DNA of 31,484 nucleotides. It comes from an uncultured Litorilinea sp. (GTDB lineage Bacteria > Chloroflexota > Anaerolineae > Caldilineales > Caldilineaceae). Of this stretch, positions 2,809-9,281 are shown one piece after another. The notes beneath the pieces are model-generated. The model searched no databases, was not told the DNA's origin, and worked only from the letters and a program-made list of their open reading frames with translations. Location of the stretch: positions 1-31,484 of the forward strand of contig CAKZVN010000320.1 of the NCBI GenBank assembly GCA_937922105.1, read 5' to 3'. The stretch's first letter is position 1; the number at the start of each line of letters is the position of its first letter. The position numbers were made by a program, and so were the translations under genes.

Positions 2809-3957
2809 CTAGACGGCGATATCCGGCATGGTTGCCGGCGCCGCCTCCTCAACCAAGAAGCGCAGTCCGATCTCTCCCGTCTTCAACCCCTCAAAGGCCG
2901 GCGCATCGCGACAGAGGAACTTCACCTCGCGTTGGATGGCCGTGCGGATGCCCGGATGGGTCAACTGGCGTTCCATCCAGACGTCGTTGCCCACTTCCTC
3001 CGCTTGGGCGCGCGCGCGGCTGTCCGGGTCCAAGTAACCGTCGGGGGCGCCATAATCCTCCTCAATCGCCTTGCGCAACCAACCACGCGGGTTTTTGATG
3101 CGATCCGGATGCACTTCTTCCAGAAAGTCCAGAAAGTCCAGTTTTTCGCGGATACGGGCGTGGCCAAACTGGTCGACCAGTTGGCGTGCAACGCGTTTAC
3201 CCAATCCCCGTTCTATCAAAGCAACAACAGCGTCGTCCTCGGGGATGGGTGGCGCTTCGTTTTGCGGCGATGCTGCGCGCATTGTTCGGTGGTTGTTGTT
3301 ATGGGTATTGTTGCTTTGTTGTTGTTCGATCGGTAAATTACCAGACCCCCCCGGTAAATTACCAGACCCCCTTCGGTAATTTACCGAACCCCCCTCTTGC
3401 TGTGGGGCGGGGGCTGCTTCCGGCTGTGCCACGCGGGCCGGACGACGAGTCGCCTTGAGGTTATCCAGATTTGTGCGGCAGCGTTCCACCAGTTCGGCAT
3501 GTTTCTGTTGCAGCAGGGGCGGCAGGGTAGCGAGCTGGTCTAGGGTCAATAGCTTGGGGGTGAGGACGACGTCGAATTTATAGCGCATATCCGGCCCTTC
3601 GCCCTCCTCGCGCGCAAAGAGCAGTTCATGTTGCTGCAGAATCTCGATCAGGCCCGGGTAGGTATAGGTTTTGCCGTGCACCACCTTTTGGTAGCCGGTG
3701 AGGACGCGTCGCTCTTTGATGCCCAGGATGGCGGCCAGGAGGTTGATTGAAGGCCAACAGGTACCCGCCTTTTGGTCCTTGTCGGCGTGGCAGAAGCTGC
3801 GTAGCACCTCGTACAGCCCCCAGGCGTCGTTGCCGACCAGGGCGCGCCAGTAGGTGCTTTCGTAATTGGACAGAATTTGGAAGCCTGCCCGGAGAGGATC
3901 GGTGACGACGCCGTTGATGTCAACAGGAATGTCGTCGGGGAAAGTGGTATTCGCCAT
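2809..3957 (-). CDS. Putative replication initiator (N-terminal HTH, low-complexity linker, C-terminal KNPRGWLRKAIEEDY domain)
   Basis: WGLYEVLRSFC...CWPSINLLAAILGI resembles the HTH of phage/plasmid initiators; internal iteron-like repeats; directly upstream of parAB; AGGAG is 9 nt before ATG 3957. Confidence 0.7.
   Translation of the reverse strand: MANTTFPDDIPVDINGVVTDPLRAGFQILSNYESTYWRALVGNDAWGLYEVLRSFCHADKDQKAGTCWPSINLLAAILGIKERRVLTGYQKVVHGKTYTYPGLIEILQQHELLFAREEGEGPDMRYKFDVVLTPKLLTLDQLATLPPLLQQKHAELVERCRTNLDNLKATRRPARVAQPEAAPAPQQEGGSVNYRRGSGNLPGGSGNLPIEQQQSNNTHNNNHRTMRAASPQNEAPPIPEDDAVVALIERGLGKRVARQLVDQFGHARIREKLDFLDFLEEVHPDRIKNPRGWLRKAIEEDYGAPDGYLDPDSRARAQAEEVGNDVWMERQLTHPGIRTAIQREVKFLCRDAPAFEGLKTGEIGLRFLVEEAAPATMPDIAV
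3331..3394. repeat. Three tandem 21-22 bp iteron-like repeats inside rep
   Basis: CGGTAAATTACCAGACCCCCC / CGGTAAATTACCAGACCCCCTT / CGGTAATTTACCGAACCCCCC; each contains the dyad GGTAA-W-TTACC. Confidence 0.85.
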
Positions 3958-3986
3958 GTTGCACATCTCCTGTGGGTCCCAGACGG

Positions 3987-4128
3987 GCCTTGAAGGAGGT
4001 GCAAAGACAGAGGCTTGACATCACCGGTGATCTCGCATATGCTGAAGGTGCCAACCTAAGCCTTGAGATCGCCTTGTTTGGTGATGTCAGTTACTTTTAA
4101 GCCTCTGTTCCTTGCATCTCTTGCAGGC
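3987..4128. other. Long imperfect inverted repeat (rod-like hairpin) upstream of rep
   Basis: Nested pairings: 3994-4004 with 4112-4122, 4007-4016 with 4099-4108, 4016-4025 with 4080-4089, 4026-4034 with 4065-4073. Confidence 0.8.
4015..4043 (+). promoter_or_regulatory. Strong sigma70-type promoter firing away from the rep CDS
   Basis: TTGACA (4015-4020), 17 bp, TATGCT (4038-4043). Confidence 0.75.
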
Positions 4129-4175
4129 GGAACTAGGACGAAGAATAGGCTCCGTTTCGGGGCTTATTCTTTTTT
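4050..4175 (+). ncRNA. Candidate ~125-nt counter-transcribed (antisense) RNA
   Basis: Bounded by the consensus promoter and an intrinsic terminator; no ORF with an RBS; internal hairpin GTTCC-TTGCA-tctct-TGCAG-gc-GGAAC. Ends are approximate. Confidence 0.5.
4141..4175 (+). terminator. Intrinsic terminator
   Basis: 13-bp stem AAGAATAGGCTCC/GGGGCTTATTCTT (two G-U pairs), 5-nt loop, then a T-run. Confidence 0.75.
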
Positions 4176-4253
4176 GATGGATAGAGTGTTTGGATCTGAT
4201 CCGATTTCGTGGACACCGAGTTAAGGGTATACTGCCCGCAAAGGAGGTGTCCG

Positions 4254-4396: not shown

Positions 4397-4571
4397 GCGC
4401 GTCTGCCAGAGCCCAATCTCCCAATTCGCTAACCTCACGGGCTGCAGGGCGCTTGCAGGCGGGATGCGCCCTTGCGCGGCGCCCGCGGTGCGCTTGCGGC
4501 GCGGGGTGTGGTAGCATAAGGACCATGAGTCGCCTGTCCTGATGTGCCCGCCGCGCCGGAAGCCGCTGCCC

Positions 4572-6800
4572 ATGTCCCGCGAACCGACCACCGTCGCCAA
4601 ATTGCGCGGCCTGCCCTGGAGCGTCGCCTGCAACGCCACCGCCCAGGTCCACGCGCAGTTGACCTTCTTCGGCGCGCTCTTCATTCTTTTTCTCAACCAG
4701 CTGGGGCTGAGCAAGACCGCCATCGGCTTGGTCCTGGCGCTGGTCCCCTTTTCCTCGGTGTTGGCGCCGCTGGTGGCGCCCTTCACCGCGCGCTACGGCT
4801 ATAAGCGCGTCTTCGTGATCTTCTATGCCGCGCGCAAGGTGGTCACCCTCTTCATCTTGGCAGCGCCGTGGGTGGCGGCGTGGGGCGGCACCACCGCGGT
4901 CTTTTGGTACATTGTGGCGGTGATTGCGTCCTTTGCCGTGGTGCGCACCATCGAAGAGACCGCCTACTTCCCCTGGGTGCAAGAGTTTGTGCCCAACCGC
5001 GTGCGCGGCAAATACACCGCCATGAGCAACATTGCCACCGCCTCCACCGGCTTTCTTGCGGTCTGGGCTGCGGGCCAAGTGCTGGAGCGCAGCAGCGGCT
5101 TGGAGGGCTTCCTGCTGCTCTTTGCCGTGGGCGCGGGCTTCGGCTTTGCCTCGGTGGCGGCGTCGCTCTTCATCCCTGGCGGCGCGGCCCAGCCCGAACT
5201 GCCCACGCGCGGCTGGCGCCAGGTTTTGACCGGCCCCGCGCTGCGCGACGGCAGCTTTCGCCGCTATCTGTTGGGCGTGGCGCTGGTGATCTTGGGCACC
5301 GCGCCGCTGGCGACCTTTCTGCCCCTCTACCTGGAGGAGCGCGCCGGCTTGACCTCGGCCCAGGTGGTGCAGGTGCAGATGGGCAGCCTGTTGGGGATGC
5401 TGGTCTTTTCCTATTTGTGGGGCTGGGCCGCGGACCGCTACGGCTCCAAGCCGGTGATGCAGGCGGGCGGCTGGCTCTTGGTGGGCATGCCGCTGCTCTG
5501 GTGGCTCTTGCCCGGCGGGCAGACGTGGAGCTTAGCCGCCGCGCTGGGCATCGCCTTCCTGCAGGGCAGCGCCACCCTGGGCTGGGGCATCGGGTCGGGT
5601 CGCCTGCTCTTCGTCAGCGTCGTCCCCACCGAACACAAGCTGGACTACATGGCGCTCTACTTCGCCTGGGTGGGGTTGGTCAGCGGGCTGAGCCAATTTG
5701 CCGGCGGCGGCGCGCTGGACGCCGCACGACGTCTGGAGGGCACGCTGTGGGGCGTGGAATTGCACGCCTATGTGCCGCTCTTTGCCGTCTCCGCGCTCTT
5801 GCCCCTGGCTGCCATCGCGCTCTTCGCCCGTGTGCGCGGGGATAGCCCCCTCTCCACGCGCCAAGTCGCCAGCATCTTCCTGCGCGGCAACCCCTTCCTC
5901 GCCATGGGGTCGCTGATTCGCTACTACACCAGCCAGGACGAGGCGCGCACGGTGAGCGCGACCGCCGCGCTGGCTGCGCCGGGCAGCCGCCTCACCGTGG
6001 ATGAGCTGCTGGAAGCCCTGGCAGACCCGCGCTTCAACGTGCGCTTCGAGGCCATCCAGGCCCTGGCGCGGATGCCCGCGGACTCGCGCATCACCGACGC
6101 GCTGGTCAAGACGCTGCACAGCCGCGCGCCTGCGCTCAGCTCCATGGCGGCGTGGGCGCTGGGCCGCGGCGGTCATCACGCCGCCATCCCCGCGCTGCGC
6201 GCCGCGCTGGAAAGCGACTATCGCTCGGTGCAAAGCTACGCCGCGCGCGCACTGGGCACCCTGGGCGATGCCGCCGTGGGCCGCGAGCTGTTGGCCCGCC
6301 TGGAAGCCGCCACCGACGAAGGCTTGAGCTTGGCCTATGCCACCGCGCTGGGGCGCTTGCAAGTCGCCGAGGCGCTGGACCCCATCCTGGCGCGCTTGGC
6401 CGCGGCCGCGGATGAATCGGTGCGCGCCGAGTTGGCCTTGGCCGCGGCGCGACTGGTGGGCGACGAAGCGCCCTACATTCGCCTGGCGCGCAGCAGCGCC
6501 AGCCAGCCGGGCACCAGCTATGCCCAGGCGTTGGCTACGGCCCACAAACAACTGGCGCGGCGGCTGCGCGGCAATGCGCCCCGCTTGGCTCTCTTGACCG
6601 AGTTGGCCGACTGCTTTGCGCGCGAAGAAGTGGACGCGGCCGCGGTGGGCTTGGCCGCGTGGTTGGCGGAGATGCCGCCCGGCCTTTTGGCTGCGCCGGC
6701 AAGCCACGTGGCGCGCGTCGCGGCCGCGCAGCTCCAGCGCCACGCGGCCGCGCGGCCCGAATACCTGCTCCTCGCGCTCCACGCCCTGACGGTGGGCTAG
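4572..6800 (+). CDS. MFS transporter fused to C-terminal HEAT (PBS-lyase-like) repeats
   Basis: About 12 hydrophobic segments with MFS loop motifs (ARYGYKR, AADRYGSKP), then repeats such as LLEALADPRFNVRFEAIQALARM and LRAALESDYRSVQSYAARALGTLG. Confidence 0.85.
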   Translation: MSREPTTVAKLRGLPWSVACNATAQVHAQLTFFGALFILFLNQLGLSKTAIGLVLALVPFSSVLAPLVAPFTARYGYKRVFVIFYAARKVVTLFILAAPWVAAWGGTTAVFWYIVAVIASFAVVRTIEETAYFPWVQEFVPNRVRGKYTAMSNIATASTGFLAVWAAGQVLERSSGLEGFLLLFAVGAGFGFASVAASLFIPGGAAQPELPTRGWRQVLTGPALRDGSFRRYLLGVALVILGTAPLATFLPLYLEERAGLTSAQVVQVQMGSLLGMLVFSYLWGWAADRYGSKPVMQAGGWLLVGMPLLWWLLPGGQTWSLAAALGIAFLQGSATLGWGIGSGRLLFVSVVPTEHKLDYMALYFAWVGLVSGLSQFAGGGALDAARRLEGTLWGVELHAYVPLFAVSALLPLAAIALFARVRGDSPLSTRQVASIFLRGNPFLAMGSLIRYYTSQDEARTVSATAALAAPGSRLTVDELLEALADPRFNVRFEAIQALARMPADSRITDALVKTLHSRAPALSSMAAWALGRGGHHAAIPALRAALESDYRSVQSYAARALGTLGDAAVGRELLARLEAATDEGLSLAYATALGRLQVAEALDPILARLAAAADESVRAELALAAARLVGDEAPYIRLARSSASQPGTSYAQALATAHKQLARRLRGNAPRLALLTELADCFAREEVDAAAVGLAAWLAEMPPGLLAAPASHVARVAAAQLQRHAAARPEYLLLALHALTVG

Positions 6801-6929
6801 GGTGCTGGCGGCTTGGTGTCTCCATGCACTCCAGCCGTGCTCAAACGATGACTTTCGTCATCGCCGAGCGCCGCGGCTGCAACTGCGCCAAACTCGTTGG
6901 GCGCCCTCTTTTTTGGCGCGCGAAGCCCC

Positions 6930-6958
6930 TTGACGCGCGCCCTGGCCCGTGTTACGCT
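6930..6958 (+). promoter_or_regulatory. Sigma70-type promoter of the DUF4157 gene
   Basis: TTGACG, 17 bp, TACGCT preceded by TG (extended -10). Confidence 0.65.
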
Positions 6959-7106
6959 TATGGGCATTGACTCCGACTTCAGCGGAGCGCCGTGCTCGTT
7001 GCCGGTGCCTGCGCAGGTTGTCTTACTCCCCATCCGCTGTCTGCCTGCTGCCTGTGCCGCGTTCACCCGGGGCCGGGCCGCCTCTCTGTCCAGGAGCTGT
7101 GCGCGC

Positions 7107-9281
7107 ATGAGCCAGAAAGCCTCCACACCGACCGCTGCCCCCCACCAACCCGCGGCCCAACCCGGCACGCAGAGCGCCGGGCAAGTTGCCCACGCCGCGC
7201 CCCTGCCGGCGGCGGTCCACCAACTGGCAGCCGCTGGCCGCGCGCCCAGCGCGCGCGATGTGCTCTATTTGCAACGAGCCGCGGGCAACCGGGCCGTGAC
7301 GCGGCTATTGGCCCCACGGCGGGACGCGGTCGTGCAGGCCAAGCTCACCGTCGGCCCGGCAGACGACCGCTATGAACGCGAAGCGGAGCGCGTCGCCGAT
7401 ACGGTCACCCGCGCCATCCAGCGCCGCGCCACGCCCGCCGCGCCGGCGGAGGAAGCCGCGCCTTCCCCCCTGGGCGGCGCGCTCCAGCGCGCGGCGGAAG
7501 GCGGGGTGGGCTTGGCGGGGGGCGCGCTCACGCCGGCGGTGGAGCAGGAGATTCAGCGAGCGCGCGGTGGCGGGCGCCCATTGGCAGCCGGCGTGCGCCG
7601 CCAAATGGAACAGCAGATGGCGGCGGATTTCAGCGGCGTCAAAGTGCACACCAACCGCGAGGCCGACCGCCTGAGCCGCACCATCCAAGCCCGCGCCTTC
7701 ACCACCGGGCAAGACATCTTCTTTCGCAGCGGCGCCTATCAACCCAACAGCCGTGGGGGCCAACATCTCTTGGCCCACGAATTGACCCACGTGGTGCAAC
7801 AAAACGGCCCCAAAGTCGCGCGCAAAACGGCCCCCGCCGTCGCCCAACGCACAGAGGACGGGGTGGTGCAGCGCGCCATCGGCTTCGAGTTCCAGACCCG
7901 CTGGGGCATCGTCAAAAATGTGCCCGACACCCCCCAGAAAAAAGGGGTGGGGACGGCGCTCAAGAACTTTGGGCGCGGGGTGAAGAACTTTTTCACCAAA
8001 AAGCCGCGCCCGCCCGCCGGCCCGCGCGAAGGCTATATCCCGCCCCAGCCGGGCCGCAAGCACGAGCGCTTTCGCAAGGCCCACGACCATCTGACCGACG
8101 GACACATCAAGCTCTCCACCGACGACAGCAGCAACGCGGTGGGCGCCGAAATCGAATGGGTGATTGACCCGCCCCTGCCGGACGACATCAAGCCCGCGGA
8201 GTTGGACGACGTGATCATGAGCTTGATGATGCACGTGGCCCAACTCTACGCCTTCAAGGACCGCGACTCCTTCTTCCTCTCCGAAGCCACCGGCAACCCG
8301 GCCCACGCCGAGATCGAGATCCAGCCCGGCATCAAGAGCAACGGGGCGCGGGATATGTCCGCCGCGGCCCAGATCACCGCCGGCATCAAATTCAACCAAC
8401 TGTGGGACCTCTTCCAGGATGTGGCGCGCAACAACCGCGTCAGCGACCCCGAACGCCAACAGGGGGTGGGCCACTTCAAAGGCAGCGCCGCCGCCATGAC
8501 CATGGTCAATGCCGTCATCAAGTCCAAGGTGGAAGGCAGCAACGAACTGAAGGCGCTCTTGGCCTTCATCGTGCGCTACGCCCTCATGAACAAGGAATAC
8601 TCCGCCAAGGACAAACAGGTCATGACCAGCAACGGCAAGGACGACTACGACCTCGCCGCCGACTACGCCAAAGTCAACACCCAATTCCTGGCGCGCACCG
8701 ACTTCGCCACCATGTTCGACATGTTGCCGCTGGAAGAGCGGCGCAAATACGGCGGGCGCAAACATTCGGAAGACGGCAATACCGACAACTCGGCAGCCTT
8801 CGTCGCCCTGGTGGACCAGGTGCTGCGCGAGGCCTCCCCCACCCCCATGAACCTGGACGACCCGGTCTACGGTCGCGGCATCAAGGGCGACAAAGCCACG
8901 CGCAGCGTGATCTACTTCCCCCTGACGCGCCGCGACTGGCTCGCCAGCATGGCGAACGGCGAAGACAAACTCAGCGGCGCCTCCGCCTATGCCCAACAAC
9001 AGGGCTACGCCGAACATCTGGAGAGCATGGGCAACATCAACAAAAAGGCGGGCAAGCTGGACAAGGTGAGCAGCGACCTGCCCGGCAAACGGACCGGCGT
9101 CATCATCGAATTCCGCAACAACACCGAGCCGCAAGCCCCCGCCAAGTGGGTGGACTACATCCGCCAGTCCGTGGCGTACATCCAGGAACTCAACGCCCGC
9201 AAGTCCATGACGGACGTGCAGGATTGGAAACTGGTGGAGAACAGCCAAAAGGCGCGCAGCATGAACTTCTGGGGCCGCTAG
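7107..9281 (+). CDS. eCIS core domain (DUF4157) protein with uncharacterised C-terminal domain
   Basis: VQAKLTVGPADDRYEREAERVAD, DFSGVKVHT, ARAFTTGQDIFF and LLAHELTHVVQQ are hallmark DUF4157 motifs; AGGAG RBS 10 nt before ATG 7107. Confidence 0.9.
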   Translation: MSQKASTPTAAPHQPAAQPGTQSAGQVAHAAPLPAAVHQLAAAGRAPSARDVLYLQRAAGNRAVTRLLAPRRDAVVQAKLTVGPADDRYEREAERVADTVTRAIQRRATPAAPAEEAAPSPLGGALQRAAEGGVGLAGGALTPAVEQEIQRARGGGRPLAAGVRRQMEQQMAADFSGVKVHTNREADRLSRTIQARAFTTGQDIFFRSGAYQPNSRGGQHLLAHELTHVVQQNGPKVARKTAPAVAQRTEDGVVQRAIGFEFQTRWGIVKNVPDTPQKKGVGTALKNFGRGVKNFFTKKPRPPAGPREGYIPPQPGRKHERFRKAHDHLTDGHIKLSTDDSSNAVGAEIEWVIDPPLPDDIKPAELDDVIMSLMMHVAQLYAFKDRDSFFLSEATGNPAHAEIEIQPGIKSNGARDMSAAAQITAGIKFNQLWDLFQDVARNNRVSDPERQQGVGHFKGSAAAMTMVNAVIKSKVEGSNELKALLAFIVRYALMNKEYSAKDKQVMTSNGKDDYDLAADYAKVNTQFLARTDFATMFDMLPLEERRKYGGRKHSEDGNTDNSAAFVALVDQVLREASPTPMNLDDPVYGRGIKGDKATRSVIYFPLTRRDWLASMANGEDKLSGASAYAQQQGYAEHLESMGNINKKAGKLDKVSSDLPGKRTGVIIEFRNNTEPQAPAKWVDYIRQSVAYIQELNARKSMTDVQDWKLVENSQKARSMNFWGR

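Follow-up and report, generated by a model that had tools for sequence, protein, structure and literature searches.

A probable replication origin of palindromic iterons inside the gene of an unannotated initiator family from Chloroflexota

Replication origins lying inside the gene of their own initiator are textbook knowledge for the lambdoid phages and are also found in RepA_N plasmids. In the RepA_N replicons of Firmicutes (pAD1, pSK41, pLS32) the origin is located in the central, variable and repeat-containing part of rep, and the specificity varies between plasmids. In the origin of phage lambda, ori-lambda, gene O contains dyad-symmetric iterons, after which comes an A+T-rich region (PMC5043065; J02459 annotation). 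Here we describe a locus of an uncultured Litorilinea sp. (assembly GCA_937922105.1, contig CAKZVN010000320.1), contained in a stretch of 31,484 nucleotides which was analysed as a whole and is called the window below. The locus is composed of a gene for a putative replication initiator (rep, product Rep) and, within the DNA coding for the linker of this protein, three palindromic iterons and an adjoining A/C-rich stretch. We consider it quite probable that positions 3217-3394, inside the linker-coding DNA of the initiator, are the vegetative origin (oriV) of a plasmid or chromid. In the literature and the plasmid databases no experimentally characterised replicon of Caldilineae, Anaerolineae and relatives was found.

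The iterons form a tandem array of three copies of the unit CGGTAAATTACCAGACCCCCC at 3331-3394, with a spacing of 21 and then 22 nt (Tandem Repeats Finder score 91); the later two copies are 95% and 86% identical to the first. Each contains the palindrome GGTAAWTTACC, the central base of which flips among the iterons (AAATT, AAATT, AATTT), as expected of an odd-centred palindrome. With up to one mismatch this palindrome is found three times in the window, where 0.05 occurrences are expected, and a count of three was reached in 0 of 100 shuffles. Outside the three sites in rep there is none in the remaining genome bin (3.06 Mb, 70% complete), and the only candidate cognate sites of the initiator are thus located inside its own gene. 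Array and adjoining stretch are part of the minus-strand open reading frame (ORF) 2809-3966 and encode GGSVNYRRGSGNLPGGSGNLP-IEQQQSNNTHNNNH; the copy at 3374-3394 is one frame off the other two, the same DNA being read as VNYR in one case and as GNLP in the other. An earlier interpretation made from the letters alone (the sequence-only reading) had described three GGTAA-W-TTACC repeats of 21-22 bp, about two helical turns apart, next to a GC-poor T/G tract inside rep, and its repeats, coordinates and quoted peptide were all correct. The tract, given there as about 3290-3330, is present but longer than stated, since the strand bias reaches to about 3217 and includes a conserved GTTGTTG partner.

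For a comparison with relatives the DNA of about 25 related loci was used; the geometry of the array could be read in 23 of them, 19 genes entered a codon alignment, and the palindrome types of 81 typable homologues were assigned from the encoded peptides. Palindrome-encoded peptides are found at the same linker position in 78 of the 81 homologues, in two to five copies and mostly in three. At the DNA level every full-length gene among the loci compared carries 2-5 tandem palindromes at this linker position, with G-runs between them. The types in the 23 loci are GGTAAWTTACC, TGACAAWTTGTCA, TGGCAATTTGCCA, TGGGAAWTTCCCA, TTGGAAWTTCCAA, TCGGAAWTTCCGA and TGGTACWGTACCA; across the family at least five palindrome sequence types can be distinguished, and all cores are perfect and odd-centred. 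Whether homologous reps carry different repeats at the same position had been posed as a check in the sequence-only reading, and this is the situation observed. Centre-to-centre spacings are 22 (seventeen intervals), 21 (fourteen), 20 (five) and 23 (two), so that 38 out of 44 intervals measure 20-23 bp, which corresponds to two helical turns and mostly to no multiple of three. Of the 21 loci with at least two copies, 18 have them in more than one reading frame. The distance from the centre of the last palindrome to a conserved 11-mer in the adjoining stretch, AACAATACCCA, is 25 nt in 23 of 23 loci (aligned rows), and six of these loci have a further upstream match to the AACAATACCCA motif at 11 nt from the last palindrome centre.

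Synonymous codon identity in the alignment of 19 genes is 0.47 gene-wide and ranges from 0.28 to 0.60 in the bins coding for domains. It rises to 0.96 at the bin encoding (E/K)QQPINNTH, to 0.79 in the next two bins and to 0.77 at (D)VVVAL. Codon choice within the stretch is equally distinctive, with GTT used for 91% of the valines (21% elsewhere in the genes), CAA for 86% of the glutamines (45%) and CCA for 57% of the prolines (18%). In two loci (L143 and L144) a change of one nucleotide makes the stretch read ITLPNKT instead of INNTHKT, and the DNA motif is retained. The closest relative (L131, a contig of another sample) is 100% identical to the window over about 105 nt of iterons and A/C stretch, except for the gain or loss of one 21-nt copy, while the flanks diverge; the window has three iterons, L131 four and a groundwater relative also four. 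Because of the spacing and the frames, the frozen synonymous sites, the frame-shifted stretch and the skewed codon choice, we take palindromes and stretch to be selected as DNA and not as peptide. The sequence-only reading had named, as a result that would refute it, repeats missing in homologues or kept only as protein; they were found to be present and conserved as DNA, which is in its favour.

On the plus strand, positions 3281-3330 are composed of 54% T, 32% G, 8% A and 6% C, and the G+C content (GC) of 38% compares with about 60% for the whole gene. The minus-strand product of this stretch is IEQQQSNNTHNNNH, residues 213-226 of ORF 2809-3966. The conserved 11-mer AACAATACCCA is located at 3302-3312 and occurs only once in the genome of the window. 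In many relatives the stretch consists of a 14-mer of the form AAACAAYACCCAWW repeated once in tandem, the second copy of which includes the 11-mer, and the mean composition in the family is 47% A, 31% C, 10% T and 12% G. The GTTGTTG partner follows the start of the 11-mer by 66-138 nt in relatives, with a mode of 81. An inverted repeat, AACAAC(A)...GTTGTTG(C), is thereby found flanking the A/C stretch (3308-3318 and 3217-3227) and is conserved in all related loci. In a single-strand fold its arms, both of them invariant, pair into a long-range stem which encloses the 14-mers (z -2.3); candidate roles of this inverted repeat may be a cruciform, a loop-back or a single-strand initiation signal. 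A role of the palindromes as hairpins or at the RNA level was considered and discarded, since a hairpin cannot form from arms of 5-8 nt with one base between them. The same applies to an RNA-level role of the A/C stretch, which is unstructured, and a conserved internal start codon is missing.

The Rep family comprises about 110 homologues, nearly all of which are unnamed and come from metagenomes and from bins of Chloroflexota (Caldilineaceae, Litorilinea, Anaerolineae, Chloroflexia). The Rep of the window gave in the Pfam/NCBIfam scan a single match, to HTH_36, at 19.3 bits and below the cut-off of 25. Among 29 members searched against Pfam none had a RepA_N domain (PF06970), the family gave no Pfam or NCBIfam match to the Rep_3, RPA or TrfA initiators, and a phage collection searched with Rep returned no protein match. 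The AlphaFold model shows a confident winged-helix N-terminal domain (about residues 30-175) and a confident helical middle domain (245-303), separated by a segment (188-240) with a predicted local distance difference test score (pLDDT) below 50. Foldseek returned as its only match a weak one to the DnaD/DnaB-family structure 5wtn (E 0.011). For the C-terminus the family profile matched, among solved structures, DnaA domain I (4tps_B, E 6.8e-7, and 8btg_A, residues 5-85), Pfam DnaA_N matches 8 of the 29 members scanned, and the C-terminal 90 residues used as a genome-search query also retrieve the N-termini of chromosomal DnaA-sized proteins. Of DnaA it is domain I alone that was matched, Bac_DnaA (PF00308) being found neither in Rep nor in the members scanned. 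The family is a predicted initiator fused to a DnaA-domain-I-like module, and Pfam has no entry for either its N-terminal or its middle domain. The true start of the window's rep is likely to be the ATG at 3957, so that the product begins with MANTTF like that of the closest homologue.

Palindrome type follows the N-terminal part of the protein. On the tree of the N-terminal domain eight changes of type are needed, against 18 on the tree of the C-terminal part and about 34 with shuffled labels. One alignment column, where the recognition helix begins, is enough to predict the type correctly for 67 of 67 proteins, with E accompanying GGTAA-type, Q GACAA-type and D GGGAA/TGGAA-type palindromes; in the window this residue is E85 (LGIK-E-RRVLTGYQK). 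Two neighbouring columns, occupied by W/Y or R and by K or T, add to the prediction. A natural chimera (P0045) has an N-terminal domain nearest to TGGAA-type proteins (68-76% identity) and a C-terminal part nearest to GGGAA-type proteins (72-79% vs 39-44%), and it carries TGGAA-type palindromes; as these match its N-terminal domain and not its C-terminal part, a pairing with the DNA-binding domain is supported. Most simply, each Rep would recognise the palindromes of its own gene as a dimer, by means of its N-terminal winged helix. The idea of incompatibility groups put forward by the sequence-only reading gains support from this, palindrome type tracking the N-terminal DNA-binding domain of the initiator.

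Two sister initiators combine the same middle and DnaA-like modules with other N-terminal domains: one (L128, G018:C9, from a genome of the bacterial family to which the window belongs) has a true Phage_rep_O domain (PF04492, E 1.1e-9) and the other (L127, G001:C1062) a different N-terminal domain. Both have in-gene repeats at the equivalent linker position, CCCCGTGTCCCACACNGAGACAC in L128 and GTAAAGAWTCTTTAC-like in L127, which are followed by an AAC-rich stretch and GTTGTTGTT. Apparently the origin module can be combined with different DNA-binding domains. The annotated replication initiator protein A of the Frigoriglobus plasmid pPL17-1 also contains the middle domain (tblastn E 6e-6).

An in-gene oriV is favoured because dyad iterons and a low-GC stretch, at a fixed distance from each other, are placed in the linker between a DNA-binding and a partner-recruiting domain. 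Binding by Rep, unwinding, helicase recruitment and origin activity are what we infer from this arrangement. Dimers of Rep would bind the three palindromes via the N-terminal winged helix-turn-helix, with a specificity set around E85, Y92 and K94, and the sites being about two helical turns apart, the dimers would come to lie on one face of the DNA and assemble into a higher-order complex. This complex could strain and open the low-GC, strand-asymmetric A/C stretch at its fixed distance of 25 nt, a single strand of which may then be held by the family-wide middle domain, and the DnaA-domain-I-like C-terminus would recruit the host helicase. Transcription through rep may aid the opening, as in lambda. 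On this view the DNA signal would give rise to the peptide GGSVNYRRGSGNLPGGSGNLPIEQQQSNNTHNNNH as a disordered by-product which is tolerated; such a by-product had been proposed in the sequence-only reading, and it fits both the predicted disorder of the linker and the conservation at the DNA level. A more far-reaching proposal joins three parts and is put forward tentatively, as we have considerable doubts that it holds in full: that one recognition-helix residue (E/Q/D, with W/Y or R and K or T nearby) re-targets the initiator to a new in-gene palindrome and so creates incompatibility groups, that the pair of A/C 14-mers is a sequence-specific single-strand element held by the middle domain, comparable to the DnaA-trio and not merely meltable, and that a domain I borrowed from DnaA loads the helicase.

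Several observations speak against the origin interpretation or weaken parts of it. The A+T content of the stretch is moderate, with 62% at 3281-3330 and 57% as the family average, and the region upstream of rep at 4001-4200, with a GC of 47%, offers an alternative location for an origin. GC skew was noisy in the window as well as in a whole related contig of 100 kb (G041:C7) and gave no usable switch. No conserved DnaA boxes were found; one match with a single mismatch at 3461-3469 is no more than chance would give, and the amino acids encoded there are not conserved in relatives. Although the association of residue and palindrome type is perfect, there are just two independent contrasts when only well-supported branches are counted, and 6-10 when all are, which is not formally significant, and the physical linkage of the iterons to the N-terminal domain could explain part of the tree result. 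The deletion at 2959-2973 removes about 80 residues, most of the DnaA-domain-I-like domain, from the Rep of the window. It is probably real and not an assembly artefact, as the contigs of a second sample (soil) are identical across the junction, and the copy of Rep in the window may be impaired or dependent on another factor.

It could be argued that the palindromes are Rep sites for copy control, autoregulation or incompatibility, acting by titration, handcuffing or as a roadblock to rep transcription, and that the origin is elsewhere, for example at about 3967-4250. We think this unlikely, even though extra control iterons are common on iteron plasmids, the intergenic region upstream has the lowest GC of the cassette (0.47) and contains inverted repeats, and the DNA-level and co-variation evidence speaks for binding sites rather than for the firing of an origin. 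As no palindrome is present outside rep in the window or genome, such an origin would have to be without sites for its initiator, and the array is not positioned at the promoter. The fixed 25 nt to a conserved, strand-asymmetric low-GC stretch is the anatomy of an origin core and not of an operator, and the same module is kept when the N-terminal domain is swapped.

Proximity to parA-parB and the palindromic repeats typical of centromeres would suit a partition site for ParB or another segregation protein, and the mosaic nature of the members, with a breakpoint near the conserved stretch, would suit a site homogenised by recombination between modules; both together are given a very low probability. 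The palindrome type co-varies with the helix-turn-helix of Rep and not with the partition genes, which themselves vary, from ParB here to small non-ParB proteins in three related loci (L132, L135, L143), and a separate repeat of 17-20 nt around and inside parAB, shared with L131, is a better candidate for parS (the centromere) than the iterons. Recombination would leave the fixed geometry and the frozen synonymous sites unexplained. That the repeats are just a glycine-rich heptad peptide of a flexible linker, with the DNA palindromes being incidental, has next to no probability: a period of about seven codons, a composition rich in G, S, N and P and the predicted disorder of the region are what it would lead one to expect, but copies in one gene differ in frame (VNYR vs GNLP; TNCH vs DNLS), spacings of 20, 22 and 23 nt are no whole number of codons, every type is a perfect odd-centred palindrome, and to this are added the frozen synonymous sites and the skewed codon use. 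The in-gene origin hence remains the reading which we prefer, and the features on which it is based are listed in Table 1 together with the neighbouring partition genes.

Table 1. Positions of the features of the rep locus in the window
Feature	Position	Strand	Remarks
Iteron farthest from A/C stretch, first in coding direction	3374-3394		Core GGTAATTTACC at 3375-3385; extended palindrome TTCGGTAAATTACCGAA; encodes GSVNYR
Middle iteron	3352-3372		Core GGTAAATTACC at 3353-3363; encodes GSGNLP
Iteron adjoining A/C stretch	3331-3351		Core GGTAAATTACC at 3332-3342; encodes GSGNLP
Strand-biased stretch (coding strand A/C-rich, plus strand T/G-rich)	3270-3330	minus	Holds GAACAACAACAA, AACAATACCCA and AACAACAAC; candidate DNA-unwinding element (DUE)
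GTTGTTG partner GCTGTTGTTGCTTTG (peptide AVVAL)	3217-3231	minus	Kept as DNA across the family; inverted partner of AACAAC run
rep gene, 385 amino acids as listed	2809-3966	minus	Winged helix-turn-helix, disordered linker, helical middle domain, truncated DnaA-domain-I-like C-terminus
Helix-turn-helix codons, about residues 72-95, PSINLLAAILGIKERRVLTGYQK	3682-3753	minus	Includes E85 (3712-3714), Y92 and K94, co-varying with palindrome type
Linker DNA, residues 188-240	3247-3405	minus	Only long segment with pLDDT <50; corresponds to iterons and A/C stretch
In-frame deletion junction	2959-2973	minus	About 220 nt lost compared to closest homologue and all other members; 15-nt overlap
parA, Walker-type ParA/Soj ATPase	1922-2707	minus	Directly downstream of rep
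parB, ParB_N and HTH_ParB	1039-1932	minus	Start estimated from 297-amino acid homologue in L131

The gene order of the cassette is rep-parA-parB-MazE-PIN, the last two being a toxin/antitoxin pair; parA and parB follow rep directly on the minus strand, and the MazE-like gene comes next. The whole cassette has 92-93% DNA identity to L131. In another member of the family the neighbours are relaxase, VirD4/TraG-like coupling-protein and FtsK-like genes, indicating a conjugative element. Full-length homologues are distributed patchily, being present in three of nine genomes of the same genus (the window's own included) and in six of 24 other genomes of the same family that were searched. The genes in the remainder of the window are ordinary accessory or metabolic ones. 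The rep-par cassette, the conjugative context, the patchiness and the accessory genes fit a secondary replicon (plasmid or chromid) and not the initiator of the main chromosome. The repeat of 17-20 nt mentioned above, which is distinct from the iterons, is found at 1-16, 1203-1219, 1380-1398 and 2724-2741 of the window and at 12-36, 2592-2609, 3934-3953 and 4111-4130 of L131. Further along in the window, ORF 6897-9281 encodes an eCIS_core (DUF4157) domain (E 4.9e-32) with a long uncharacterised C-terminal part. One member (L118, G018:C1:876762-878105), which has a different middle domain and TCGGAAWTTCCGA palindromes, one of them degenerate, is located within a contig of at least 878 kb of an 8.7-Mb genome and may represent either an integrated element or a replicon of very large size.

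In four related loci the frame changes between the N-terminal and the C-terminal half of rep (L009 at 4540-4606, L045 at 3546-3738, L047 at 3612-3693 and L049 at 3512-3687). The breaks are inside the palindrome array or in G/C homopolymers, and often fewer copies of the palindrome are present. For L009, L045 and L047 the frame shifts are best explained by a probable collapse of the 21-22-nt repeat by the assembler, because exactly two repeat units, 43 nt, are skipped in a Logan contig of a close relative (X4). On account of this 43-nt skip a two-gene architecture of the split reps, or programmed frameshifting, was set aside in favour of assembler collapse. Phase variation or slippage at runs of G9 and C9-11 may play a role in L047 and L049. 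A different case is L050 (2816-3646), in which the frame passes from the helix-turn-helix (..LGLKKKKR..) straight into the linker, so that about 100 residues of the N-terminal domain are apparently missing; it has one palindrome only and an in-frame stop in the middle domain at about 3329-3331, and looks like a decayed or mis-assembled copy.

There is some practical interest in these genes. For the Chloroflexota groups concerned few genetic tools exist, and a gene of about 1.4 kb combining initiator and origin would be a candidate for the construction of shuttle vectors, for which several naturally orthogonal specificities could permit vectors compatible with each other. About 80 genes with the binding site and the binding domain in one frame also constitute a natural experiment, in which protein-DNA recognition, the evolution of incompatibility and the cost of an overlapping code become legible at the level of the sequence. 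For annotation they call for caution, since the linkers resemble low-complexity peptide repeats and assembler collapse yields false frame shifts.

Among known systems, phage lambda is the closest in layout. In both cases dyad iterons about two helical turns apart are found in the coding sequence of the initiator itself (four iterons of 18-19 bp in lambda), an easily melted, A-rich and strand-asymmetric region follows on one side in lambda (J02459 sequence) much as the A/C stretch does here, and the array separates an N-terminal origin-binding part from a C-terminal recruiting part. The parallel to lambda O drawn by the sequence-only reading is therefore apt as regards design, with in-gene dyad iterons and an adjoining stretch, and does not extend to homology, as the protein has no detectable similarity to lambda O (hhalign probability 0.3%; no PF04492 match). 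Differences are also seen in the cores, which are shorter here (11-17 bp) and have G-runs between them, and in the candidate melted region, which is A/C-rich (A+T about 57-62%) instead of strongly A+T-rich. In place of a P-like helicase loader gene there is a fused DnaA-domain-I-like domain, and the context, a plasmid or chromid with parAB, is not that of a phage.

The RepA_N replicons differ by the RepA_N Pfam domain, which has no match here, by host phylum and architecture, and by having short direct repeats where palindromes are found in this family. The initiator of pPL17-1 has the helical middle domain in common (VVVAL...GWLRRAIEEDY vs ...AGYLVKSIRDDY), and repeats spaced by about 22 bp next to rep, as here. 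Its repeats are direct and upstream of the gene and its N-terminal domain is of the RPA type, whereas in the present family they are palindromic and in-gene and the N-terminal domain is not assigned to a family. With DnaA and oriC there is homology of the C-terminal domain to DnaA domain I, which binds helicase and partners, and the short motifs repeated next to the initiator sites are reminiscent of the 13-mers of the DUE; unlike DnaA, this Rep has no AAA+ domain and no domain IV for binding of DnaA boxes, and such boxes are missing. What we describe is thus a known design, the in-gene origin, in an unannotated initiator family. New compared to the systems above would be the initiator family itself with its N-terminal and middle domains, its fusion to a DnaA-domain-I-like module, the A/C-rich candidate melted region, which is conserved in sequence, and the unusually clear match, seen family-wide, between a residue of the predicted recognition helix and the palindrome encoded downstream of it.

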